From an uncultured Acidimicrobiales bacterium (GTDB lineage: Bacteria; Actinomycetota; Acidimicrobiia; Acidimicrobiales; JAHEJN01), in the NCBI GenBank assembly GCA_963787285.1, contig CAWBCM010000013.1, forward strand, positions 37,562 through 101,561: 64,000 nucleotides of DNA. The letters run 5' to 3'. Position 1 is the stretch's first letter. Each line of letters begins with the position of its first letter. The translations under genes and the position numbers were made by a program. The notes under the pieces were generated by a model, which made no database searches, had not been told where the DNA came from, and saw nothing but the letters and a program-made list of their open reading frames with translations. Below are positions 6,364 to 60,705 of this stretch, piece after piece.

Positions 6364-6447
6364 CTCGCAACGCTACCGGTCGTGCCGGCGCCGAACTGCG
6401 GGTGGTTCGACGTTCAAGTCGATCGGGAACCCTGACGATACGACGAC

Positions 6448-6846
6448 GTGGAATCGCGGGCGAGAACTCGCGCCCCCTGGCGGCGCTCCCTGGCTGTCGT
6501 CGCCGTGGTGGTGGTGGCCGCCACGGCCTGTGCCGACGACGACTCCGGACTGCGCTACGAGCTGACGGAGCCGGGATGCGACCTCGACGCCCACATCTGC
6601 CAGCTCCTCGACTCGATGAGCGACCAGAACTCCCGTTACTACGTCACCACCTACGAGGGCCTCTACGACCGCCTGGCCCCGAACTCCCTGGCCGAGCTCG
6701 ACCGGCAACAATGGGTCGTGCTGTCCGAGCCCGAGGACGATCTGTTCCTCGACACGCCGACGCCGACCCCCACCGGACCCGACACGTCCACGGTCGGACC
6801 CGCACCGGGCCCGGCCGCCGGCTACGGCCGCAACGGGTCGATGTAG
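6448..6846 (+). CDS. hypothetical lipoprotein
   Basis: Signal-like N-terminus with a lipobox (VVVAATAC-ADDD) and a Pro/Thr-rich tail. I recognised no family. Confidence 0.4.
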   Translation: MESRARTRAPWRRSLAVVAVVVVAATACADDDSGLRYELTEPGCDLDAHICQLLDSMSDQNSRYYVTTYEGLYDRLAPNSLAELDRQQWVVLSEPEDDLFLDTPTPTPTGPDTSTVGPAPGPAAGYGRNGSM

Positions 6847-6896
6847 GGCCCACCGGCCACGGGCCGGGTGAATATCGGTGATGCTTTGGTCGACGC

Positions 6897-7289
6897 GTGC
6901 CGGGATCTGTAGGCTCGGTGCCCGTGTCGGACTTCCTCCGCAGTTATCTCACCGTTGGCCTGTTCGGCGCGTTGGCCGTCGGCTTGGTCGGCGCCTTCAT
7001 CGGCCTGTCCAGCCTGGTGCGGCCCACCCGGCCGCAGAGCCAGAAGTACATCAACTACGAGTCGGGCGTCGATCCCGTCGGCACCGGCTGGGCCCAGGCC
7101 AACATCCGCTACTACGTGTTCGCGCTGTTGTTCGTGATGTTCGACGTCGAGGCCGTGTTCATCTTCCCCTGGGCCACGCGGCTCGAGGCCTATGGTCTGT
7201 TCGGTCTGGTCGAGATGTTCATCTTCATCTTCATCCTGTTGCTCGGCCTTCTGTACGCATGGCGCAAGGGAGTTCTTCGGTGGATCTGA
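6897..7289 (+). CDS. nuoA: NADH-quinone oxidoreductase subunit A
   Basis: Contains [40 protein letters not shown]. The start is uncertain, with GTG candidates at 6897, 6918 and 6924. Confidence 0.9.
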
Positions 7290-7320
7290 TGTCAACCAGC
7301 CAACTCGAGGTCACCGACTG

Positions 7321-7821
7321 ATGGGTCTCGTCGAGAGCGGCAAGGCCCCGGCCTCGCTCAAGAAGCTGCTCAACATCAGCCGCAAGTACTCGCTCTGGGT
7401 CTACCAATGGGGCCTGGCGTGCTGTGCCATCGAGATGGGAGCGGCCTTCGCTTCGCCCCGATACGACGTCATGCGCCTCGGGGTGATTCCCTTCCCGGCG
7501 TCGCCCCGCCAGGCCGACCTCGTGGTGATCTCGGGCACGGTGACCGACAAGATGGCCCCCGCCATCCTTCGCCTCTACGAGCAGATGCCCGACCCGAAGT
7601 ACGTCATCTCGATGGGCTCGTGCGCCAACTGCGGCGGGCCCTACTGGGACAGCTACTCCGTCACCAAAGGCGTCGATCAGATCATTCCCGTCGACGTGTA
7701 CGTCCCCGGCTGCCCGCCACGACCCGAAGCGCTGCTCGAGGGCATCGTGTTGTTGCAGCAGAAGATACTGAACGAGGATCCCGCCGAGCGATGGAAGGGT
7801 GATCCGATTGTCGTCGGCTGA
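7321..7821 (+). CDS. nuoB: NADH-quinone oxidoreductase subunit B
   Basis: Contains [10 protein letters not shown]...[11 protein letters not shown]...VPGCPPRPE, the ligands of cluster N2. Start ATG 7321. Confidence 0.95.
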
Positions 7822-8482
7822 CACCACGGTCGAGGAGGCCGAGGCCCCGGTGGTCGACACGGCGCGCAATGCCGCGGCCGCAGCCTTCGTCGACGCGCTC
7901 GGCGATGCGGTGGTCGAGTCGTTCGTGAAACCCGGATGCGACGTGATCATCCGCGTCCGCACCGATGCGTGGCGCCAGGCCGCCGACGCGGCCCGCAACG
8001 GCCTCGGCTTTCGGTTCTTCGACTTCCTGTCGGCCATCGACTGGATGCCGTCGCCGTTCGGCCGCGACATGGATGCCGAGCAGGACGCCGGCCCCGGCGA
8101 CGCGTCGGCTGCCGCCGAACCCATCGTGCAGGGCTACGGCGGCGGCGAGACCCGTTTCCAGGTCCTGGCTCGTGTGTACTCGCTGTACGAGCACGTCGGC
8201 GTCACCCTCAAGGCCGACGTGCCCGACGACGACCCCCGCATCGAGAGCTGGATCTCCGTGTACGGCGGCGTGAACTGGCACGAACGGGAGGCCCACGAGA
8301 TGTTCGGCATCGAGTTCGACGGGCATCCGGGACTGCGTCACCTGTATCTGCCGGGCGACTTCGAGGGACACCCCTTGCGCAAGGACTTCCCCCTCGTCGC
8401 CCGCCGGGTGAAGCCGTGGCCCGGCATCGTCGACGTCGAGGGCATGCCCGGAGCCGACGACGACGAAGGTGACGACTCATGA
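7799..8482 (+). CDS. nuoC: NADH-quinone oxidoreductase subunit C
   Basis: Contains [42 protein letters not shown]. The GTG start overlaps the end of nuoB, so the exact start is uncertain. Confidence 0.9.
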
Positions 8483-9654
8483 CCGCGCCGACCGAACCCC
8501 AGCAGCTCGCCTACATCGCCGCGCAAGCGGCCGATGCCCGCGTGAACGTCGACGTCGAGACCGGCGACGGGATGATCCTCAACATGGGTCCCCAGCATCC
8601 GGCCACTCACGGAACGCTTCGCATCGTCGCCAAGCTCGACGGCGAACAGGTCATCTCCGCCGAGCCCATCATGGGCTACATGCACCGGGGCTACGAGAAG
8701 CTCACCGAGGTGCGCACGTACCCACAGGTCACCACCCTGGTGAACCGCATCGACTGGCTCGGGAACTTCGCCAACGAGGTGCCGTTCATCCTCGCGGCCG
8801 AGCAGCTCATGGAGGTCGAGGCACCGCCGCGTGCCCAGTACATCCGCACGATTCTGTTCGAGATGAGTCGCGTGGCCAACCTGGCCCTGTTCCTGGGCGA
8901 CATGGCGGTGCAGCTGGGCGCAACGACGCCGGTCTTCTACGCCTTCCGCGATCGCGAACACGTGCTCAACCAGATCGAAGCGGTCACCGGCGGTCGTTTC
9001 CATCCCAACTTCGACCGCATCGGCGGCATCAAGGACGACCTGCCCAAGGGTTGGATCGACGACACCAAAGCCGTCATGGGCAAGATGCGCACCTTCTGCG
9101 ACGAGATGGAAGATCTCGTCGTCGGCAACGAGATCTTCCAGACCCGCACCCGCGGCATCGGCATCATTCCCGCCGACACCGGGCTCGAGTACGGGATGTC
9201 CGGCGCCAACATCCGGGCCTCGGGGGTCGACTGGGACCTGCGCAGGGACAACCCCGTCGGGCTGGCCTACGACAAGGTCGACTGGAAGGTCTGGACCCAC
9301 CCCGACGGTGACAGCTTCGCCCGGTACTGGGTGCGCCTCCAGGAGACCCGCGAGGCCACCCTCATCGTCGATCAGCTGCTCGACTCCCTCCCCGCGGGTC
9401 CGATCATGGCCAAGGTGCCCCGCATCATCAAGGTGCCCGAGGGCGAGGCCTACGTCGCCACCGAGAACCCGCTCGGCGAGATGGGTTACTACGTGGTCAG
9501 CAAGGGCGATCTCGTCCCGTTCCGGGTGAAGATCCGGTCGGCCTCGTTCTCGAACATCTCGATCACCCCCTGGTTGCTCCAGGGTGTCTATGTTCCCGAC
9601 ATCATCACCATCCTGGCCAGCCTGTACTTCATCCTCGGAGACATCGACCGATGA
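8479..9654 (+). CDS. nuoD: NADH-quinone oxidoreductase subunit D
   Basis: Intact 391-aa ORF with [14 protein letters not shown]...[12 protein letters not shown] overlap with nuoC. Confidence 0.95.
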
Positions 9655-10686
9655 CCTCCGTTCTCGCGGTCGAGCTGTCGTACTGGCAGGAAACCGGCAT
9701 CCGCATGGTCATCGGGCTGGCGGCGGTCCTGCTGCCGGCGGGCACGTTCGTGTACGTGTACCTGTTCAAGATGATGTCGTTCATGCAGAGTCGTCTCGGA
9801 CCGATGGAGGCCGGGCCCTACGGCTCGATGCAGCTGCTGGCCGAGGTCGGGAAGTTCTTCCAGAAGGAAGACATCATCCCCGAGCGGGCCGACCGTCCGG
9901 TGTTCAAGATGGCGCCCTTCGTGGTGCTCATCTCCACGTTCTTGTTGGTGTTGGTGCTGCCGGCGGGGCCCGACGCGTACTTCGTCGATCTCGACGTCGG
10001 CATCTTCTTCGCCCTCGCCGTGTCGCTCGATCTCGGTGATCGGCATCCTCATGGCCGGCTGGTCGTCGGCCAACAAGTACTCGCTGCTCGGGTCCTTGCG
10101 TGCCACCGGTCAGCTCATCGCCTACGAGCTGCCGCTGGTGCTGGCGGTGGTCGGCGTGGTCATCCAGGCCGGCACGCTCAACATGCAGAGGATCGTGCTC
10201 GCCCAGGCCGACGGCGAGATCTTCGGATGGGGTGCCATCGGCAACCCGTACATCCTCACCCAGTTCGTCGGCTTCGTCCTGTTCCTCGTCGCCGTGCAGG
10301 CCGAGCTCACCCAACCGCCCTTCGACATGCCCGTCGCCGAGTCCGAGCTCGTCACCGGCTACCTGACCGAGTACTCGGGCATGCGGTTCCTCATGTTCTT
10401 CATCGGCGAGTTCGCCACCGCCGGCGTGTTCTCCGGCATCGCCGCCGTGCTGTTCCTCGGCGGTTGGTGGGTGCCGGGCCTCGACTCGTCGAGCAACTGG
10501 TTCAACGTCATCGGCCCCGCCGTGCTGTTCGGCAAGATGATGCTGGTCTCGTTCCTGATCTTCTGGTTCCGGTTCACCTACCCTCGGTTCCGGGAGGACC
10601 AGCTCCAGAAGCTGGCCTGGAAGGTTCTGATCCCCATCGCCCTCGGCAACATCGTCGTGACTGCTGTCCTGAAGGTGGCCCTCTGA
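9651..10686 (+). CDS. nuoH: NADH-quinone oxidoreductase subunit H, with an apparent 1-nt insertion near 10027
   Basis: The N-terminal part is in the frame of ORF 9651. The remainder, [36 protein letters not shown]...[15 protein letters not shown], is in ORF 10036..10686. Removing one c in gtgtcgCtcgatctcg restores AVSSISVIG. Confidence 0.85.
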
Positions 10687-11189
10687 TGCCCAAGCTCCCC
10701 GGCATGGTCACCGGTCTCGGCGTCACCATGAAGACGATGCTGCGCACCGCCCAAGACGGTGCCGCGACGGTGCAGTACCCGCACGAGAAGGAGGAGCCGG
10801 CCCCTCGGGCCCGTGGCGTCATCGCGCTGCACGAGGAGAACTGCACGGCGTGCATGCTCTGCGCCCGTGAGTGCCCCGACTGGTGCATCTACATCGAGGG
10901 CCACAAGTACCTCGCCCCGCCCCGCCGCGAGGGCGGCAAGCCCCGCCAACGCAACGCCCTCGACCGCTTCGACATCGACTTCTCGCTCTGCATGTACTGC
11001 GGCATCTGCGTCGAGGTCTGCCCGTTCGAGGCCCTGTTCTGGAGCCCCGAGTACGAGTTCTCCGAGCCCCGCATCGCCGACCTGCTCCACGACAAGGAGC
11101 GCCTCGGCGAGTGGATGGAGACCGTCCCCGACTTCGAGGCGTACGAGGCCGGCGCCGAGGTCAAGAAGAAGTCGGTGCCGGCGACATGA
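10686..11189 (+). CDS. nuoI: NADH-quinone oxidoreductase subunit I (2x[4Fe-4S] ferredoxin)
   Basis: Contains [12 protein letters not shown] and [15 protein letters not shown] 10686 overlaps the nuoH TGA stop. Confidence 0.93.
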
Positions 11190-11715
11190 CGCGTAGCGGC
11201 GTACTGGCCGAGGTCGACTGGAACATCGCGCAGAACGTCTTCTTCGGCATCTGTTCGCGACCATCCTGGTGATCGCCGCGATCAAGGTGGTCACCACCAA
11301 GAACGTCGTGCACGCCGCCCTGTATCTCGTGGTGGTGCTGGCCGGGGTCGCCGCCCAGTTCATCCTGCTCGGCGCCGAGTTCGTCGCCATCACCCAGGTC
11401 CTCGTCTACATCGGCGCCGTCGTCGTGCTGTTCCTGTTCGGCATCATGCTCACCCGGGCCAAGCTCGGTGTCGACGACGAGCTCGACCAGGACAATCGGG
11501 TGCCGGCGCTGCTCACCGGCGTGCTCCTCGCCGGCGTGCTCGTCGTGACGCTCCTGCGGACCTTCGAGGACATCGAGCTCCCGGCCGAGACGCGCAGCAC
11601 CACCGCCCAGGTGTCCGACACCATCTTCAGCCAGTACATCGTGCCGTTCGAGGCGGTGTCGGTCCTCCTTCTCGCCGCACTCATCGGGGCCATCGTCGTG
11701 GCCAGGAAGGACTAG
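11186..11715 (+). CDS. nuoJ: NADH-quinone oxidoreductase subunit J, with an apparent 1-nt deletion near 11250
   Basis: [22 protein letters not shown] is in one frame (ATG 11186, ATGA overlap with nuoI). It continues as [25 protein letters not shown]... in ORF 11269..11715. Confidence 0.85.
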
Positions 11716-11723
11716 GGGCCGCC

Positions 11724-12024
11724 ATGTTGCTCAACCAGTTCCTCCTCCTCGCCGCCGATCCTGTTCTGCATCGGCGTGTACGGCGTGCTCGCCCGCCGCA
11801 ACGCCGTGCTCGTGCTCATGTCGATCGAGCTCATCCTCAACTCGGTCAACATCAACCTCGTCGCCTTCGGTGCCTTCAACGACACCGTGGCCGGTGAGGT
11901 GTTCGCGCTGTTCGTGATCGCCGTCGCCGCCGCCGAGGTCGGCGTCGGCCTGGCCATCGTCCTGCTCATCTATCGCAACCGCCGCAGCATCGACCTCAAC
12001 CAGGCCGATCTCATGAAGGGCTGA
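11724..12024 (+). CDS. nuoK: NADH-quinone oxidoreductase subunit K, with an apparent 1-nt insertion near 11756
   Basis: ATG 11724 gives [11 protein letters not shown]. The conserved [31 protein letters not shown] continues in the frame of ORF 11776..12024. Confidence 0.85.
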
Positions 12025-12029
12025 GGCAG

Positions 12030-14263
<2,234 letters not shown>

Positions 14264-14285
14264 GACGAGGATCCGAGAAACCATC

Positions 14286-15904
14286 ATGGAACTGCTCGAC
14301 GACTGGGTACTGACCGCTCGCCACGTTCCTGCCGCTGGTGGGTGCGGCGATCGTCATGGCGATCCCCGAGCAGAGGAGACAGCTGCATCAAGCTGGTTGC
14401 GTTGGGCACCGCCCTCGTCGTGGCCGCGCTGGGCGTGTACCTGCTCGTGCGAGTTCGACTACGACGACGGCCGGCGAGCTGCAGTTCGTGGTCGACAAGT
14501 CGTGGATCGACGTGATCAACAGCCGCTACATCGTCGGCATCGACGGCATCTCGCTTGCCGCTCGTCCTGCTCACGATGCTGGTGACGCCGGCCTCTGCAT
14601 CATCTACTCGTTCGGACCACTTCCCCGAGCCCCACAACCCCAAGGCGTTCCTGGCGCTCATCCTGATCCTCGAGACCGGCATGATCGGCACCTTCGTCGC
14701 CCAGGACCTCATCCTCTTCTTCGTGTTCTTCGAGGTCGTGCTGCTGCCGATGTTCTTCATGATCGGCGTGTGGGGTGGCGAGGACCGCAAGTACGCCTCG
14801 CTCAAGTTCTTCCTCTACACGATGTTCGGTTCGGCGCTGATGCTGGTGAGCTTCCTGGCGTTGTTCTTCCTCGCCGACGGCACACTCGCCGGCGTCGAGG
14901 CGAACACCTTCGACATGCGGGCCCTGCCGACCGCCGCCGGCGCGATCGCGTCGACCAGCCAGCTGTGGATCTTCGGTGGCATGTTCATCGGCTTCGGCGT
15001 CAAGGTGCCGATGTTCCCGTTCCACACCTGGCTGCCCGACGCCCACACCCAGGCACCCACGGAGGGCTCGGTCATCCTGGCCGCCGTGCTCCTGAAGCTC
15101 GGCACCTACGGGTTCGTCCGCATCGCCATCCCGATCCTCCCCGAGGCCGCCGTCGAGTGGGCGCCCTTCATCGGGCTGCTGGCGGTCATCGGCATCATCT
15201 ACGGTGCACTGGGCTGTCTGGCCCAGACCGACATGAAACGCCTGATCGCCTTCTCGTCGGTGGCCCACATGGGCTTCGTCATGCTCGGCATCGCGACCCT
15301 CACCGATTTCGGCATCAACGCCGCGGTCTTCGGCATGGTCGCGCACGGCCTCATCACCGGCATGTTGTTCTTCATCGCCGGCTCGGTGAAGGAGCGTTTC
15401 CACACCCTCGACATGTCCCGTCTCGGCGGTCTGCTCCTGCAGGCACCGCGAATGGGCTGGATCCTCGCCTTCTGTGCCATGGCGTCGCTCGGGCTGCCGG
15501 GCCTGGCCGGATTCTGGGGTGAGTTCCCGGCCATTCTGGCTTCGTACAATCCTGCAGGGCCGCTGAACGAGGCCGTGTTCCGGACCTACATGGTGGTGGC
15601 CGCACTCGGCACGGTGCTGGCCGCGGGCTATCTGCTGTGGATGCTCCAGAAGGCCGCCTTCGGAACCGTGAAGGAAGAATTCGTCGACGACCCGCACATC
15701 CACGACGCCACGCTCATCGAGTACCTCGCGTGGGCGCCGCTGCTCGCCCTCATCCTCGTGCTCGGCGTCTACCCCAACCTCTTGTTCGACCTCACCGACC
15801 CCGCCGTGGTGAACAGTCTCAGCACCTGCCTCACCGAGGTGGGCGAAGCCGCCGAGGCGTGTTTCGACGCCGGGGCCGGTATCTCCCAGGCTGCGGGCAA
15901 CTGA
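14286..15904 (+). pseudogene. nuoM: NADH-quinone oxidoreductase subunit M, frame broken about 7 times in the first ~330 nt and intact afterwards
   Basis: Segments switch frames up to about 14615: MELLDDWVLTA, TFLPLVGAAIVMAIPEQ, IKLVALGTALVVAALGVYLLV, EFDYDD, GELQFVVDKSWIDVINSRYIVGIDGISL, PLVLLTMLVT, LCIIYSF, DHFPEPHNPKAF.... ORF 14555..15904 then runs uninterrupted and includes FPFHTWLPDAHTQAPTEGSVILAAVLLKLGTYG. Confidence 0.85.
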
Positions 15905-15907
15905 CCG

Positions 15908-17437
15908 ATGTCGCTCGTTGCCGTGCTCGCCCAGCTGCCCCAGGCCGACTTCGTGCGGCCGGCCATCGACTGGCACGCGGTCGCGCCCGAGCTCACCTTG
16001 CTGGCGGCCGGAGCGCTGCTCACCCTGGTCGACATCATCGGTCTCGACCGCACCCGCCGCTACAGCGCGTCACTCACCGGCTTCGCCTTTCTCGCGCCGC
16101 TCATCCCGATCGCCACGCTCGCCATCGACGGCATCGGCGGCGAGCCCCGCAGCCTGTTCGGTGGCGCGTACGTGGTCGACGCCTACTCGCTGGTACTCAA
16201 GGCGATGTTCCTCGTCATCGGATACGTCGTCGTGTTGCTCAGCACGCAGTACATCGAGGAGGGCGACTACTGGGAGAGCGAGTACTACCAGATGCTCAGT
16301 GCCTCACTGCTGGGCATGGTGGTGATGGCCAGCGCCCGTGATCTCATCACGATCTTCGTGGCCCTCGAGCTGCTCTCGATCCCCGCCTACCTGCTCGCCA
16401 CATGGCGCAAGCGCGACGTGCGGTCGAACGAGGCCGGGATCAAGTACTACCTCATGGGCGTGTTCGCCTCGGCGGTGATGCTGTACGGCATGTCGCTGGT
16501 CTTCGGCGTGGTGGGCTCGACGAAGCTGGTCGACATCGGCAGCGCGCTCGGCGGGGCCATCGGCGACGAACCGGCCGTGACGCTGGGTCTCGTGTTCGTG
16601 ATCGTCGGCTTCGCATTCAAGGTGTCGGCGTTCCCCTTCCACATGTGGGCGCCCGACACCTACGAGGGCGCCCCCACGCCGGTCACCGCCTTCCTGGCCG
16701 TGGCGTCGAAAGCGGCGGGCTTCGTCGCCCTGATGAATCTCATCGTGGTCGGGTTCCTCGATCGCGAGGAGGTGTACCAGCCGGTGATCTTCCTGCTCGC
16801 CTCGGCCTCGATGTTCGCCGGCAACTTCATGGCTCTTCGCCAGACCAACGTCATCCGACTCATGGCCTATTCGGGTGTGGCCCAGGCCGGCTTCATGCTG
16901 GCACCGCTCGTCGTCGTGGGCGAGGCCGGTCTGGCCGACGACGCCGTCGGCTCCATCGTCACCTACATGGTCATCTATGCCGCGATGAACCTGGGGGCCT
17001 TCGGCGTGATCCTCACCGTCGCCCGCAAGACCCGATCCGGCGAGCTCACCAGTTTCGGGGGGCTGTTCGACTATGCCCCGGCGCTGGCCGTGCTCATGAC
17101 GGTCTTCCTCGCGTCGCTGGCCGGCATCCCGCCGCTCGGAGGGTGGTACGCCAAGTTCGGCATCTTCCGGTCTCTGATCGAGGCCGACACCGGCTGGGGC
17201 TACGGCCTGGCGGTCATCGCTGCGGTGAATACGGTGGTCGCGGCCGCCTACTACTTCAAGCTGGCGTCACGCATGTGGTTCGACGAGGTGCCCGACGGCG
17301 ACACCACCAAGATCCCGCTGCCGGCGCCGCTGCTGGCCGCACTGGCCCTCTGTTTGATCGGCACGCTGATCTGGGGAGTGGTTCCCGAGACGGTCACACA
17401 CTTCACCGAGGTCTCGCTGCTGGCGGCCGGCAGCTGA
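15908..17437 (+). CDS. nuoN: NADH-quinone oxidoreductase subunit N
   Basis: Intact 509-aa ORF containing FPFHMWAPDTYEGAPTPVTAFLAVASKAAGF. It is the last gene of the operon. Confidence 0.93.
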   Translation: MSLVAVLAQLPQADFVRPAIDWHAVAPELTLLAAGALLTLVDIIGLDRTRRYSASLTGFAFLAPLIPIATLAIDGIGGEPRSLFGGAYVVDAYSLVLKAMFLVIGYVVVLLSTQYIEEGDYWESEYYQMLSASLLGMVVMASARDLITIFVALELLSIPAYLLATWRKRDVRSNEAGIKYYLMGVFASAVMLYGMSLVFGVVGSTKLVDIGSALGGAIGDEPAVTLGLVFVIVGFAFKVSAFPFHMWAPDTYEGAPTPVTAFLAVASKAAGFVALMNLIVVGFLDREEVYQPVIFLLASASMFAGNFMALRQTNVIRLMAYSGVAQAGFMLAPLVVVGEAGLADDAVGSIVTYMVIYAAMNLGAFGVILTVARKTRSGELTSFGGLFDYAPALAVLMTVFLASLAGIPPLGGWYAKFGIFRSLIEADTGWGYGLAVIAAVNTVVAAAYYFKLASRMWFDEVPDGDTTKIPLPAPLLAALALCLIGTLIWGVVPETVTHFTEVSLLAAGS

Positions 17438-32273: not shown

Positions 32274-33242
32274 TCAGGGCCGGAGGTCGGTGCGCCAGTA
32301 GTCGACGCCGAGCTCGTCGGCCATGGCGGCCATGCGCGGCGCGATCGGATTCCCGATGGCGTCGAGCACTCGGTTCATCATCCCGTAGTTCCCGGCCACG
32401 GCCAGCGCGCGAACCGCGCCGGCCTCACCCACGGCTTCGACCAGCGCGGCGCGTGCCAGCGGCATCTCCTCGGCGTCCCACAGCGCCACGGCGTCGGCCG
32501 CGGCGCGCAGCTCGACGCCAGCCGGCAGCAACGGGTCGACCGCCACCTGGTTCACCGCTCTCAGGTCGACGGGCACCTGGTGGGCCTTGCTTCCCTCACG
32601 GAGAAACATCGCATGGGCGAACAGTCAATAGAAGCACTCGTTCAGCAGCGAGGTCCGCGCGGCGACCATCTCCATCTGGGGGCGGAGGAGATCCTTGACC
32701 AGACCGAACTCGGGGATCTGTTCGTTGGTGATGAAGAAGGCACCGTGGATCTCGTGCAGCGCGGCGTGATCGTCGGGTACCGCTGACAACGCCACGGGGG
32801 CCGACGGCGCGCCGACCGTGGGAACCCACGCCCCGTTCGACGCCGCGGCCACATCGGTGACGCCGGTGGGTTCGCCCGGCTCGGCGGTTGGGAGTCGACG
32901 AAGGGGGCGGCCGACTCCGAACTCGAACCCGTCGATCGCCGCGAGCCGCGAGACCACCCCGATGATCTCGACGTACGCGCAGCGATCGAGGCCCCGGTCC
33001 TCGAGCTGGTCGACCCACTCGCGCCGAATCTGATGAGCTCGGGTGGAGACCGCCCGGGCCGCCTCGGCGGCGACCGCCGCGACCTCTCCCGTGCGGGCCT
33101 CGTCACCGGCCCGCTCGCGACGGGCCTCGCGAGCGATGGCGACGCGCTCGGTCCCCGTGAAGAACGATCCGGGCCGGGCCATGCGGGCCCAGTCGCGCTC
33201 GATGACGATGTCGTACCCGTCGCCTACACGCAGTTCGCCCAT
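32274..33242 (-). CDS. AhpD/carboxymuconolactone decarboxylase (CMD)-like peroxidase-related protein with an in-frame TGA (32625-32627) at the CxxC motif; candidate selenoprotein or a disrupted gene
   Basis: ORFs 32625..33242 and 32274..32609 share one frame. Reading through the TGA gives ...ARTSLLNECFY[TGA]LFAHAMFLREGSK..., which matches N-x-C-x-Y-C-x-x-x-H of the AhpD core. The downstream ORF's ATG lies 5 codons after the TGA, inside the motif helix. Confidence 0.6.
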
Positions 33243-40688: not shown

Positions 40689-48284
<7,596 letters not shown>

Positions 48285-56482: not shown

Positions 56483-56528
56483 GGAACTGCTGAGTGTAGG
56501 TGGCCGCTCCGACGGCCGACACCGGGGC

Positions 56529-58541
56529 TCAGATCGGTTCGATCTCGATGGCCTCGATGGCGGGCACCGCCAGGAGGTCGATCAGCGTCTGGCGGTCGTC
56601 GTCGGCCGAGATCAGGATGACGATGGGGGCCAGCTCGGCGCCCTGTTCGACCCACAGGTCGAGGGTGAAGCCGTCGGGCGACGAGCCGACGAGGTGGCGC
56701 CACGAGCGCCCTCCGATGTCCACAGGGTCCTCTTCGGCGATGGTCATGTCGAGCTGATCGCCCACGACCGAGGCGAGCTGATCGGCGATGAAGGCCGGTC
56801 CCCCGAGCTGCACGATGGCCGTTTCATCGGTGATCGACGCGCTCCTGCTCGACTGGACTCCGGTGGCGTCGGCGGTCCAGCCCACCGGCCGCACGCTCAG
56901 GAGGCTGACGCCGAAGTCGGCGATGTCGACCGAGTACGGCTCGAGCTCGATCGACTCGACGGGAACGGGGAGGAAGGCCGGCGGGTCGAGTCGGTCGACG
57001 CAGGAGATGTCGAGGGTGTTCGGTTCCACGATGAACGCCGCGGCGATCTGCATGCCACAGGGGTCACCGGTGACACCGTGGGCCAGCGTCGGGAACGCGA
57101 CCACACGGGCATTGTCGAGCTGGGCGGCGGCCGCCTCGGCCCACTCCGGTGGCGTCACGGGATCGAAGTAGCCGGCGAGCAACAGGGTGGGGATCGACCC
57201 GGTCACCGGCTCGTTCTGACTGGCCGACGCCTGCCCGGCCGGCCACGCCTCGCAGACGTCGAAGGCGAAGGATCCGACGTTCTCGGACGTTTCGAGTGGA
57301 CGTTCCCAGAGCGGGTCGGCCGGCTGGGCGGTATCGACCGCGTCGGGGGAGCTGAACGGCACTTCGTCGTGGCACGCGAACGAGAACAACAACCCGGGGG
57401 TGAAGAACGCCTCGTTGGTGGCGTCGAGGCTGAGGAAGGTCTCGGCCACGCCGACGCGGCCCGCCTCGAGGTCGACGACCAGTTCGGGCAGATCGGTGAA
57501 GGCGATCGGGTCGTACAAGGCTCCGAGGACCATCCCGAGCAGCGCATCGCCGTCGACGAGCACGTCGTCGGTACCCCCGGTGAGGAAGTTCGTGGCCGTT
57601 GCGGGCAGCGGATCGGCTTCGAGGCTCTCGAAGAGGGCACGGAAACGCTCGTCGAGGAACGGGAAGCGACCGGCGCAGTCGGCGTCGGCCGCACAGGCCG
57701 CCAGCACCCGCTCGTACGACCGAACCAACGACGCCTGCGTGTCGGCGGTGGCGTCGACCTCGGGCGGAAGGGTGGAGTCGAGAACCGCCGTGCGAACGAT
57801 GTCAGGGTGGCGCTTCATCACTTCGAGCCCCAGTCGGGTGCCGTAGCTGATGCCGAAGAGGTCGAGCTGATCGACGCCGAGGGCTCGGCGGATCTGGTCG
57901 ACGTCGTCGGCGTTGTTCGCCGTGTTGTACTGCGCGAGGTCGACTCCGGCGGTACTCAGCCGCTGATGGCAGGCCGTCAGCCCGTCGAGCACGTTCTGTC
58001 GGTACCCGTCGGGGTCGAGATCGGGTCGAACCGCCACCTCGTCGTAGACCGCATCGAGCTCGGGGCAGTCGAGCCGGGGTACCGATTGGCCGACCCCTCG
58101 TTGATCGAACACGATGACGGCGGCGTGGTCGAGAAGCGGCAGGTACCGGTCGGCGTAGACGAACGGAATGGTCTCGAGCGCATGGCCGCCGGGACCCCCC
58201 TCGAGATAGATCGTCGGGGTGGCCGCAGGATCGTCGGCAGTGCTGGCCAGCACCGAGACGGCCAGATCGACGGTGCCCGCCGACGGATCGTCGTAGTTCT
58301 CGGGAACGCTGACGGTGCCGCATTCGATCGTGGCGCCACCGGGAACGTCGAAGGAGCAGGGGCCAGGGACGAAGGTCCCCGCGATCTCGGCCGAACCGGA
58401 AGGCTCGGGCACCGAACCGTCGTCGGCTACTTGTGGTGTCGGCTCGGCCTCGGGAATCGCCAGGTCGAAGTTGGGGCTGCAGGCACCGACGGCCAACGCA
58501 GTCACCGCTACGGCGCCGAGGAGCCGCCCGAGGGAAGTCAT
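56529..58541 (-). CDS. secreted alpha/beta-hydrolase lipoprotein, tripeptidyl aminopeptidase (TAP, S33)-like, with a C-terminal extension
   Basis: Lipobox LAVGAC-SPN. It contains YLEGGPGG...FDQRGVGQS...LFGISYGTRLG (nucleophile elbow GxSxG)...AHGV. Start ATG 58539-58541. Confidence 0.8.
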   Translation of the reverse strand: MTSLGRLLGAVAVTALAVGACSPNFDLAIPEAEPTPQVADDGSVPEPSGSAEIAGTFVPGPCSFDVPGGATIECGTVSVPENYDDPSAGTVDLAVSVLASTADDPAATPTIYLEGGPGGHALETIPFVYADRYLPLLDHAAVIVFDQRGVGQSVPRLDCPELDAVYDEVAVRPDLDPDGYRQNVLDGLTACHQRLSTAGVDLAQYNTANNADDVDQIRRALGVDQLDLFGISYGTRLGLEVMKRHPDIVRTAVLDSTLPPEVDATADTQASLVRSYERVLAACAADADCAGRFPFLDERFRALFESLEADPLPATATNFLTGGTDDVLVDGDALLGMVLGALYDPIAFTDLPELVVDLEAGRVGVAETFLSLDATNEAFFTPGLLFSFACHDEVPFSSPDAVDTAQPADPLWERPLETSENVGSFAFDVCEAWPAGQASASQNEPVTGSIPTLLLAGYFDPVTPPEWAEAAAAQLDNARVVAFPTLAHGVTGDPCGMQIAAAFIVEPNTLDISCVDRLDPPAFLPVPVESIELEPYSVDIADFGVSLLSVRPVGWTADATGVQSSRSASITDETAIVQLGGPAFIADQLASVVGDQLDMTIAEEDPVDIGGRSWRHLVGSSPDGFTLDLWVEQGAELAPIVILISADDDRQTLIDLLAVPAIEAIEIEPI

Positions 58542-58735
58542 GGGGGGCAGACTAGCGAGCGGGAGGTGCCTCCCTGTCGCGCATCGACCCGCCGCCGAAG
58601 CAACGGGCCGATGGCACTGGAGGGGAACCCGCCTCACCGAATGGCTCGGCTGGTTCTCCCTCCGACTCCTCAGTTTGCAGTGTGGTTACATTCACCCATC
58701 GCAAAACACGTGGAGCGCGACGACGGCGGGCGCGC

Positions 58736-59384
58736 TCAGCCCTTCGCCGCCTTGCGTCGACGGGTCGACTCGAGGTCGGGCTCGACCAATCGGTCACGTT
58801 TCAGTTCGCTGAAGTTGTCGTAACGGACCAACCACGACATGTGGTGCCAGAGGGCGCGTGCCTCGTCGGGATCGGTGGTGGGATTGGAGATCACCGGCCC
58901 GAAGATGGCCGGCCCGTCGCCACCGTCGAGCACGATCGCCGGTACGCCGAACGCGGCCGTGCGTTCGACCAGCGACCGGTGGTCCGCCAGCAGCCGATCG
59001 AAGGTGGCCCGGTCGGCCATCGCCTCGGCGAGTCGCTCGGGCGGCAATCCGGCGGCGGAGAGCGCCTTGCGCACGACGTGGTGGTCGTCGAGGTCGAGCC
59101 CGGAGTGATGACCGGGCCGAGCCCAGGGCGGAGTAGAGCCGTCCGAGCGCCTCGTTTCCGTCGGTGTCACGCACCAGCACGCACGTGCGGAGCGCCGCCA
59201 CGCCGCGCGCGGCGTCGATGTCGAGCTCGGCGATGTCGCCCTGGTGGTTCTGGATGGCTAGCGAGAACACGTCCCACTCGACCTCGAGATCACCCAGCCC
59301 CACGAGCTGTTTGATCCATCCAGAGGTCTGGAAGCACCATGGTCAGAGTGGGTCGAAGTGAAAGTCGATCTTCTCGGTCGGCAT
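58736..59384 (-). CDS. DsbA-like thioredoxin-fold protein of the Rv2466c (mycothiol-dependent reductase) type, with an in-frame TGA (59343-59345) replacing the first Cys of CPWC, plus a frameshift near 59110-59125
   Basis: From ATG 59382-59384 the translation is [13 protein letters not shown][TGA][32 protein letters not shown]...LGRLYSALG. It then switches frame to ...[27 protein letters not shown]...[10 protein letters not shown]...FGPVIS...NFSELKRDR. From memory, this parallels Rv2466c (FWFDPLCPWCWITSRW...FFELKRTR). Confidence 0.6.
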
Positions 59385-59499
59385 TCGGCCGACCCTATCG
59401 GGACCCGCCGGTCGCAAGTCGCGCCGAACGCCCGTAGCATGGTGAGTCGCTCGTGGCCGCTAGGCGCGCCCGCACCGGGCTTGTTCCGAGGAAAGAACG

Positions 59500-59736
59500 A
59501 TGTCGAAGATCTGTCAGGTAACCGGACGCAAGCCAGCGTTCGGCAACAACGTGTCGCACTCGCACCGCAAGACGCGGCGTCGGTGGGATCCGAACATCCA
59601 GAACCACCGTTTCTGGGTTCCGTCCGAGAAGCGCTGGATCAGCCTCACCGTTTCGGCCAAGGGGATCAAGACGATCAACAAGCACGGCATCGAGAAGGTC
59701 GTGGCCGACATGCGCAAGCGTGGGGAGAAGCTCTGA
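59500..59736 (+). CDS. rpmB: 50S ribosomal protein L28
   Basis: [59 protein letters not shown]... Confidence 0.95.
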
Positions 59737-59903
59737 TGCCCGCCGGTTCCGACAAGCGACCCATCATCAAGCTCAAGTCCACTGCTGGCACGGGCTACAC
59801 GTACGTGACCACCAAGAACAAGGTCAACCAGCGTGAGCGCATCGAGCTGAAGAAGTACGATCCCGTCGTACGCAAGCACGTGATCTTCAAGGAAGAGAAG
59901 TAA
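59736..59903 (+). CDS. rpmG: 50S ribosomal protein L33 (Cys-less form)
   Basis: ATG 59736 overlaps the rpmB TGA stop. [55 protein letters not shown]. Confidence 0.93.
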
Positions 59904-59925
59904 GTCTTCCCGTAAGGGAGTGCTG

Positions 59926-60705
59926 ATGCCCTCGATCGACGAGGGGCGCGAGATTCTGTCGGCGGTGCTGGTCACCGACGATCCCCGCCCCGGGCTCTGG
60001 GAGTTCGTCGACACCGGTCTGGCCGACGCCTTCGTGCCCGAGCTGCCCGCTCTCCGCCTCGAGCAGGACCCCATTCACCGGCACAAGGACGTGCTGGCCC
60101 ACACCATTGCGGTCACCGCCCAGACGCGGGCCGAGCTGCGACTGCGGCTGGCCGCGCTGTTCCACGACGTCGGCAAGCCCCGCACCCGGCGCATCGACGA
60201 CGAGGGGGTGACCTTCCGTCACCACGAGGCGGTCGGCGCCAAGCTGACGAGGAAACGACTGCGCGAGCTCGGCTACGACGACGACGTCGTCGACGACGTG
60301 ACCGAGCTGGTCAGGTTGTCGGGACGGTTCAAGGGATTCGCGGCGGGTTGGAGCGACTCCGCCGTCCGGCGCTATGCCCGCGACGCCGGGCATCTCCTTG
60401 GCCTGCTGAACGAACTGGTGCGGGCCGACTGCACCACCCGCCACGAGCACAAACGGGTCGAGCTCCACAGCCACGTCGACGAGCTGGAGGACCGGATCCA
60501 CGCGCTGGCCGAGGAGGATCGACGCAACGCCGAGCGGCCTCTGCTCGATGGTCAAACGGTGATGGCCCACCTCGGGATCGAACCGGGTCCCGATGTGGGC
60601 GCAGCGATGACGTTCCTGCTCGCCCTGAAGCGAGCCGAACCCGACCTCGACGAGGCGGCCACCATCGCGCGCCTCGACCAATGGTGGGCGGCCCGCAACC
60701 GCTGA
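59926..60705 (+). CDS. HD-domain protein homologous to the C-terminal half of actinobacterial CCA-adding enzyme / poly(A) polymerase; no nucleotidyltransferase domain
   Basis: ATG 59926 follows AAGGGAG. It contains DPIHRHKDVLAHTIAV...AALFHDVGKPRTR...TFRHHEAVGAKL. Only 22 nt separate it from the rpmG stop, which leaves no room for an N-terminal PolyA_pol domain. Confidence 0.65.
   Translation: MPSIDEGREILSAVLVTDDPRPGLWEFVDTGLADAFVPELPALRLEQDPIHRHKDVLAHTIAVTAQTRAELRLRLAALFHDVGKPRTRRIDDEGVTFRHHEAVGAKLTRKRLRELGYDDDVVDDVTELVRLSGRFKGFAAGWSDSAVRRYARDAGHLLGLLNELVRADCTTRHEHKRVELHSHVDELEDRIHALAEEDRRNAERPLLDGQTVMAHLGIEPGPDVGAAMTFLLALKRAEPDLDEAATIARLDQWWAARNR

Follow-up and report, generated by a model that had tools for sequence, protein, structure and literature searches.

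We analyzed a 64-kb stretch of DNA from an uncultured Acidimicrobiales bacterium (contig CAWBCM010000013.1; this whole stretch is termed "the window") and studied a gene on its minus strand that is interrupted by an in-frame TGA and by a frameshift. We conclude with good confidence that this gene encodes a selenocysteine (Sec)-containing, Rv2466c-like reductase with the active site Sec14-Pro-Trp-Cys17, that its UGA is recoded, and that the frameshift is an assembly error. A preliminary description of this DNA, made without database searches, had proposed a UxxC selenoprotein of the Rv2466c/DsbA-like type. This proposal is now backed by orthologs carrying TGA at the same codon, by an ortholog carrying Cys, and by an RNA hairpin specific to the Sec forms.

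The gene, its in-frame TGA, and its orthologs

The features of the coding sequence on which the analysis builds are:

58736-59384, minus strand: Rv2466c-like/DsbA-like thiol reductase gene, recognized by Pfam matches on both halves, by alignment with Rv2466c structures, and by its orthologs
59346-59384, minus strand: the 13 codons upstream of the putative Sec codon, whose peptide is kept among orthologs with synonymous variation
59343-59345, minus strand: in-frame UGA, predicted to be read as Sec; codon 14, which opens the U-P-W-C redox motif

The gene starts with an ATG at 59384-59382, ends with a TGA stop at 58738-58736, and comprises 215 codons after one extra base is removed. The reading frame upstream of the shift runs to ...LYSALGSAR and then continues in the +1 frame. 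The two halves of the gene gave adjoining matches to the Pfam family PF22234 (Rv2466c-like), covering profile positions 1-78 and 82-180 and scoring 42.6 and 38.7 bits against a cutoff of 27, and both also matched PF01323 (DSBA), albeit more weakly. The family alignment suggested in the preliminary description gave a full-length fit: the repaired protein aligned end-to-end, over ~200 residues (6-205), with the Rv2466c structures 4ZIL, 4NXI, and 5XUR (E-value of about 1e-27). The gene thus encodes a member of the Rv2466c-like branch of DsbA-like thioredoxin-fold reductases. In the NCBIfam scan, no model matched the protein. Alignment with 4ZIL also bore out the earlier claim regarding the TGA at 59343-59345: its column coincides with the first Cys of FDPLCPWC, so that the motif here is U-P-W-C, located at the N-terminus of helix alpha-1, the position of a CxxC-type redox motif.

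At least 11 independent assemblies, with identities of 51-99%, have the TGA at the identical codon (L001, L002, L019, L020, L021/22/23, L024, L025, L026, L027, L028, and the distant L006; these constitute the set of Sec forms). L001 and L002 are contigs of Acidimicrobiales metagenome-assembled genomes, and L019-L026 are metagenome or SRA-derived contigs, all of them with the TGA. L027 and L028, which were reached via the neighboring L28 gene, carry it at the same codon, and L006, at ~51% identity, reads FDPV-TGA-PWCYQT. The gene order is common to all: ECH, HD, rpmG, and rpmB, followed by the divergent dsbA-like gene and an Abhydrolase_1/4 hydrolase. Each ortholog has an ATG 12-13 codons before the TGA, with the peptide M(P)TEKI.FHFDP[LI] in between. 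Since this segment upstream of the TGA shows synonymous codon differences (Pro CCA/CCC/CCG, Phe TTT/TTC, His CAC/CAT) but keeps its peptide, it is evidently translated, and because in-frame stops immediately precede the ATG in L021, L025, and L026, the start is fixed at this ATG. The ortholog frames run unbroken to a normal stop, with neither a frameshift nor extra stops, and yield products of 208-225 amino acids in L001, L002, and L019-L028. The comparison among orthologs further revealed that purifying selection is strong before as well as after the TGA. The decaying locus, with additional stops and no conservation 5' of the TGA, that the preliminary description had named as a counter-sign was therefore not seen: the 5' peptide is kept and the ortholog frames are intact. 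Taken together, the comparison of sequences confirms the TGA as a predicted Sec codon that is real and evolutionarily conserved, rather than a product of decay.

Cysteine forms of the protein were also recovered. The full-length relative P0001, with 73% identity, reads FDPLCPWC. At its locus (L029-31), the gene order is identical to that of the Sec forms, which makes P0001 a positional ortholog, and the Sec column is occupied by TGC. Including this ortholog, a Cys codon (TGC or TGT) was found at the Sec column in P0001/L029-31 and at least 8 other homologs. A metagenome scan with the family alignment, in which the matches listed were mostly Cys forms of 50% identity, supplied the Cys controls used below as well as L006. 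At the level of sequence, the Sec orthologs and the syntenic Cys ortholog form the classical signature of a Sec/Cys pair, as used in the Cys/Sec-pair approach to bacterial selenoproteins (PMC13188914). The Cys-form gene itself (L029:3512-4141, in L029-L031) carries CPWC and has lost the hairpin described below, and it looks like a Sec-to-Cys replacement. In a rough neighbor-joining tree, the Cys ortholog nests within the clade of Sec forms, and L006, the distant Sec form, falls among Cys forms, a placement that implies repeated switches between Sec and Cys. Such switching is an already known pattern, and selenoproteins are commonly lost, or their Sec replaced by Cys, during evolution (PMC1794560).

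The stem-loop downstream of the UGA

In bacteria, Sec insertion is associated with a selenocysteine insertion sequence (SECIS) located 3' of the UGA. The following structures are relevant here:

59280-59328, minus strand: candidate bacterial SECIS (bSECIS), a long imperfect stem-loop in the RNAalifold consensus, at +18 to +66 from the U of the UGA
59301-59303, minus strand: its apical loop, GUG in the window and GUC in most orthologs, 39 nt after the UGA
59319-59332, minus strand: the short hairpin UCCAG-ACCU-CUGGA of the preliminary description, found in the window and L027 only and outside the conserved structure

The long stem-loop begins 14 nt past the UGA and was found in all TGA forms and in no Cys form. 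Its lower stem is GACCUC/GAGGUC, its middle stem GGAUCA/UGAUCU, and its upper stem CAGCUC/GAGCUG or CAGCUC/GGGCUG. In a 9-sequence alignment, 89.5% of the pair cells held canonical pairs, compared with 26-43% when the pairing partners were slid by 1-3 columns. Compensatory changes occurred at 3 pairs, among them one from C-G to U-A in L006 and one from A-U to G-C in L002. In L006 (L006:2998-3640, contig LXNJ01000018.1), a hairpin stands at the same place, with a compensatorily changed stem and a 10-nt loop.

Three comparisons tie this structure to the Sec forms. The mean z-score relative to shuffled sequences was -2.8 in 11 Sec loci and -0.2 in 8 Cys-form homologs. The syntenic Cys ortholog (L029-31), which encodes the same peptide with other codons, had a minimum free energy (MFE) of -10.8 kcal/mol and a z-score of about +0.9, and when the structure of the Sec clade was threaded onto it, the energy was -1.7 kcal/mol, as opposed to -23 to -27 in the Sec forms. 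Finally, synonymous diversity at codons +1 to +22, normalized per amino acid, was 3.7, lower than the 5.4 expected (permutation p of about 0.025).

The bSECIS model specifies a loop of 3-9 nt, an upper stem of 4-16 bp, a spacing of 16-37 nt, and an MFE of at most -7.5 kcal/mol; a G is found in the first two loop positions, usually as G[G/U], and the 16-37 nt spacing fits most elements (PMC13188914). The hairpin described here has a 3-nt loop (GUC/GUG), an upper stem of 6 bp, and an MFE of -20 to -31 kcal/mol, all within this model. Between the UGA and its apical loop lie 38-39 nt in the main clade, 38 nt in L026, and 34 nt in L006. SECIS prediction yielded this stem-loop with a GU loop at +18 to +66, rather than the short hairpin ~10 nt after the UGA that the preliminary description had proposed. 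The short hairpin does exist in the window, but it is not conserved: its 3' arm is non-complementary in L001 (CCGCA), L002 (CGAUA), L020, L025, L026, and L006. With this arm unpaired in most orthologs and a loop lacking G, it was dropped as a SECIS candidate.

The frameshift, selenocysteine decoding, and alternative explanations

The preliminary description had also reported a frameshift near 59110-59125, and this proved correct. The lesion is a single base:

59112-59113, minus strand: extra base causing a +1 frameshift; the window has CGGT, its relatives CGT or CGG-

When one base is taken out, the window agrees with its relatives in GCC CGG/CGT CAT CAC (A-R-H-H). The shift is present in no ortholog, a finding that rules out programmed +1 frameshifting. 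L027, which was obtained in a separate sequencing run, matches the window at 99.8% identity over 3.6 kb (56499-60102). The two differ by six substitutions and by one indel, the one at 59112-59113, and the gene of L027 is intact and has the same TGA. One synonymous change aside, the differences within the coding sequence cluster in 4 nt (window 59112-59115 versus L027:2614-2616; CCCGG versus C-GAG), which suggests a consensus error at a micro-heterogeneous, strain-variable site. Changes private to the window lineage had a nonsynonymous-to-synonymous (N:S) ratio of 7:16 overall and 4:9 downstream of the shift; these ratios match those of intact orthologs and are unlike those of neutral decay.

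Other genes of the window carry lesions of the same kind. The rpoC gene (44354-48284, plus strand) is split by a single-base insertion with a junction at about 44675: its N-terminus, MLDVNDF...HIWYL, lies in the frame of 44354 and covers Rpb1_1 positions 3-87, and the continuation lies in the frame of 44430 and covers Rpb1_1 positions 90-312. This insertion must be an assembly error, because a broken copy of the essential rpoC is impossible in a living cell. Similarly, nuoH (9651-10686, plus strand) has one +1 frameshift with a junction at about 10029, leaving NADHdh positions 5-106 and 107-298 in different frames, and nuoL (12030-14585, plus strand) has about five +1 shifts, including junctions at about 12770-12810 and 13325-13360. 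The single-base insertions in nuoH and nuoL lie in G/C-rich context; nuoA, B, C, D, I, J, K, M, and N are intact. All insertions, in rpoC, nuoH, nuoL, and the dsbA-like gene, are in the +1 direction. Given these same-direction insertions and the intact gene in L027, the frameshift at 59112-59113 is very probably technical, an insertion error of the assembly. Aside from these lesions, the nuo operon (6436-17437, plus strand) has the order nuoA-B-C-D followed directly by H-I-J-K-L-M-N, with no nuoE, F, or G between nuoD (end 9654) and nuoH (start 9651), and is thus a complex I cluster of the 11-subunit type.

Several observations weigh against Sec insertion at this UGA. The genes selA, selB, selC, and selD were not found in the 64-kb window or in the fetched loci. 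Compensatory changes affect only 3 of the 19 hairpin pairs, and several A.C mismatches are present, although covariation is limited because the hairpin lies in conserved coding sequence. The depression of synonymous diversity is modest and runs past the hairpin to about codon 55, and the 38-39 nt spacing lies just beyond the 16-37 nt range of the bSECIS model. ARAGORN, run on the window and on 17 loci, detected no tRNA-Sec, and Pfam scans of 38 open reading frames (ORFs) and ORF fragments of the window detected no sel genes. An Rfam scan of the window returned four tRNAs only; Rfam has no usable bacterial SECIS family.

The window does contain a second gene with an in-frame TGA:

32274-33242, minus strand: AhpD-related (seleno)protein gene matching NF041238, with the TGA at 32625-32627

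This gene comprises 322 codons and has the motif C-F-Y-TGA. With Cys substituted at the TGA, its product scored 229.9 bits (cutoff 175) with NF041238, an NCBIfam equivalog model named "alkylhydroperoxidase-related (seleno)protein", and a textbook bSECIS, with an 8-bp stem, a bulged U, and a GUGA loop, lies 25 nt after the UGA. An exact-product look-up of the 205-amino-acid ORF at 32625-33242 returned no record. Two independent UGA-containing redox genes with GU-loop hairpins therefore occur within one 64-kb window. Judging from this second gene, which belongs to a curated selenoprotein family, the organism probably decodes Sec. For Actinomarinales, another order of Acidimicrobiia, the presence of Sec machinery is on record (bioRxiv 10.64898/2026.04.03.716425).

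The preliminary description had left sequence error and pseudogene to be weighed against each other, and the balance falls on the side of error, with the insertions in rpoC, nuoH, and nuoL and the intact L027 speaking against a pseudogene. An unlikely explanation is that the family is a genuine selenoprotein family in which the copy of this strain became a fresh pseudogene through a real and very recent 1-bp insertion. The extra base does stand in the given sequence outside any long homopolymer, near-identical strains vary at this site, where L027 has two substitutions as well, and selenoprotein loss and Sec-to-Cys replacement are common (PMC1794560). However, the same-direction insertions in the essential rpoC and in nuoH and nuoL prove that the window contains indel errors, its 99.8% identical counterpart in L027 is intact, and the N:S ratio of 4:9 after the shift shows no relaxed constraint. 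An ordinary pseudogene, with the TGA arising by nonsense mutation from the catalytic Cys codon and the frameshift as a second lesion, is scarcely credible. TGC is one base change away from TGA, the 650-nt gene has two lesions, and no Sec machinery was seen in the window, but decay does not account for a TGA that is fixed, in intact frames under strong purifying selection, across at least 11 assemblies with as little as 51% identity, for an RNA structure downstream of it that is specific to the Sec form, or for a second gene of a curated selenoprotein family in the same window.

It is also conceivable, though very unlikely in our view, that the conserved UGA is not a Sec codon, and that a near-cognate tRNA (Trp or Cys) reads it through instead, or that it ends a 13-residue leader followed by an internal GTG/ATG start. 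In a protein search, the close relatives (67-85% identity) were all called by public gene callers as products of 170-192 amino acids starting from M/V-FSLAIQ or VELGD, as an internal start would have it, and the case for Sec insertion is itself built from sequence. The TGA lies upstream of every truncated public call, at the same codon. A product starting at FSLAIQ would lose strand beta-1 and the whole xPWC active site. The 25 codons from the UGA to the internal start share their frame with the 13 upstream codons, and their peptide is conserved. Moreover, the UGA falls exactly at the catalytic Cys, for which a Cys ortholog exists, the GU-loop hairpin fits SECIS features, and known DsbA-like selenoproteins share the UxxC arrangement. 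An alternative genetic code, with UGA as a sense codon genome-wide, was ruled out, as this gene and its neighbors end in UGA.

Returning to the Sec-containing reductase, Sec insertion, binding of SelB to the hairpin, and the nature of the physiological reductant and substrate are what we infer from these observations. During translation, UGA codon 14 would be recoded as Sec, with SelB and Sec-tRNA(Sec) presumably recruited by the apical part of the stem-loop as the ribosome reaches UGA-14; at the terminal UGA, which lacks such a structure, translation would end. As Cys19 of Rv2466c suggests by analogy, the attacking nucleophile on disulfide or mixed-disulfide substrates would be the selenolate of Sec14, and Cys17 would resolve the resulting selenenylsulfide. 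The electron donor may be mycothiol or some other thiol. Sec14 may thereby provide a more reactive reductase for such substrates.

Upstream region, annotation, and known selenoproteins

One further conserved feature lies upstream of the gene:

59392-59397, minus strand: TAGGGT hexamer, conserved, 7 nt upstream of the ATG

The hexamer is kept in the window, L001, L002, L019, L020, L025, L026, and L028; in L021 and L024 it reads TAGCGT and lies 8 nt upstream. The intergenic region between the dsbA-like gene and the divergent rpmB (59385-59499) is identical at ~52 of 56 nt in the window, L001, and L002, is more conserved than the synonymous sites of the coding sequence, and contains no Shine-Dalgarno sequence. 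A scan for sigma-70 promoters and terminators around the dsbA-like gene found nothing. Judging from the conserved hexamer, TAGGGT may be the -10 element of a leaderless transcript, and the conservation of the intergenic region suggests a leaderless mRNA together with regulatory elements shared with rpmB-rpmG.

A broader and rather speculative picture is that of an Rv2466c-like, mycoredoxin-type selenoprotein lineage of the Acidimicrobiales' own, linked to housekeeping functions by its position beside rpmB-rpmG, perhaps with a leaderless mRNA, a long SECIS, and repeated Sec/Cys switching. We regard this picture as possible but doubtful. If it were true, only 39 nt would separate the Sec UGA from the start of a leaderless mRNA, and the SelB-binding loop would lie beyond the consensus distance, pointing to a SelB/SECIS geometry in actinobacteria that differs from the E. 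coli paradigm.

The truncated public calls (P0002-P0007, P0009, P0010, P0018, P0121, and P0122) are missing the N-terminal 23-38 residues along with the active site, and they are unnamed or described as "hypothetical protein". This mis-annotation is systematic and results from the Sec codon. The gene represents a well-supported selenoprotein in soil and freshwater Acidimicrobiales, where the use of Sec has barely been described. The combination of close Sec orthologs, a nested Cys ortholog, and a distant Sec form offers a compact natural experiment on the exchange of Sec and Cys and on the features that a SECIS has to retain within coding sequence. As a practical lesson, a conserved TGA at a catalytic Cys can be real even beside a frameshift, and the frameshifts in this window are to be regarded as artefacts of assembly, not as biology.

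DsbA-like UxxC selenoproteins were first described from the Sargasso Sea in 2005, with 9 sequences (PMC1088965), and subsequent work added Anaeromyxobacter, Desulfovibrio, Desulfotomaculum (PMC1794560), and others. By 2016, they were counted in 41 organisms (PMC5029168), and a 2026 review lists them as "DsbA-like protein form 1" (PF01323, UxxC; PMC13188914). The gene of the window thus adds one to a group known since 2005. What may be new is the placement in the Rv2466c-like subfamily and in the Acidimicrobiales, the geometry of the long hairpin, and the lack of an NCBIfam model. With DsbA-like form 1, the window protein shares the DSBA-type thioredoxin fold, Sec in place of the N-terminal Cys of CxxC, widespread Cys homologs, and a stem-loop with a G-containing apical loop downstream of the UGA. 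It differs in that the window proteins belong to the PF22234 subfamily and to Acidimicrobiales-type actinobacteria (the published members being compared by their description), and in that its hairpin is longer than the consensus, with the loop 38-39 nt from the UGA instead of 16-37.

Rv2466c of Mycobacterium tuberculosis, a mycothiol-dependent thioredoxin-like reductase/nitroreductase, is collinear with the window protein over ~200 residues. FDPLxPWC is identical in the two and the C-terminal FxELKRxR is kept, whereas the nucleophilic position holds Cys in Rv2466c and Sec in the window protein, and identity is only about 30%. The AhpD-related (seleno)protein NF041238, known as "hypothetical protein 1" of the Sargasso Sea, resembles it as a UGA-containing thiol-redox gene of the same genome with a loop that starts with GU. 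Its fold, however, is unrelated, its Sec is C-terminal (CxxU), and its SECIS is short and canonical, with a spacing of 25 nt and a bulged U. With regard to the SECIS of the E. coli fdhF type and the bSECISearch consensus, the hairpin of the window departs from them by a spacing 1-2 nt beyond the range, by the lack of an obvious bulged U in the upper stem, and by a stem of about 18-19 bp with two internal loops. It agrees with them in lying within the coding sequence just 3' of the UGA, in the G followed by U that starts its small loop, in its 6-bp upper stem, and in an MFE far below -7.5 kcal/mol.

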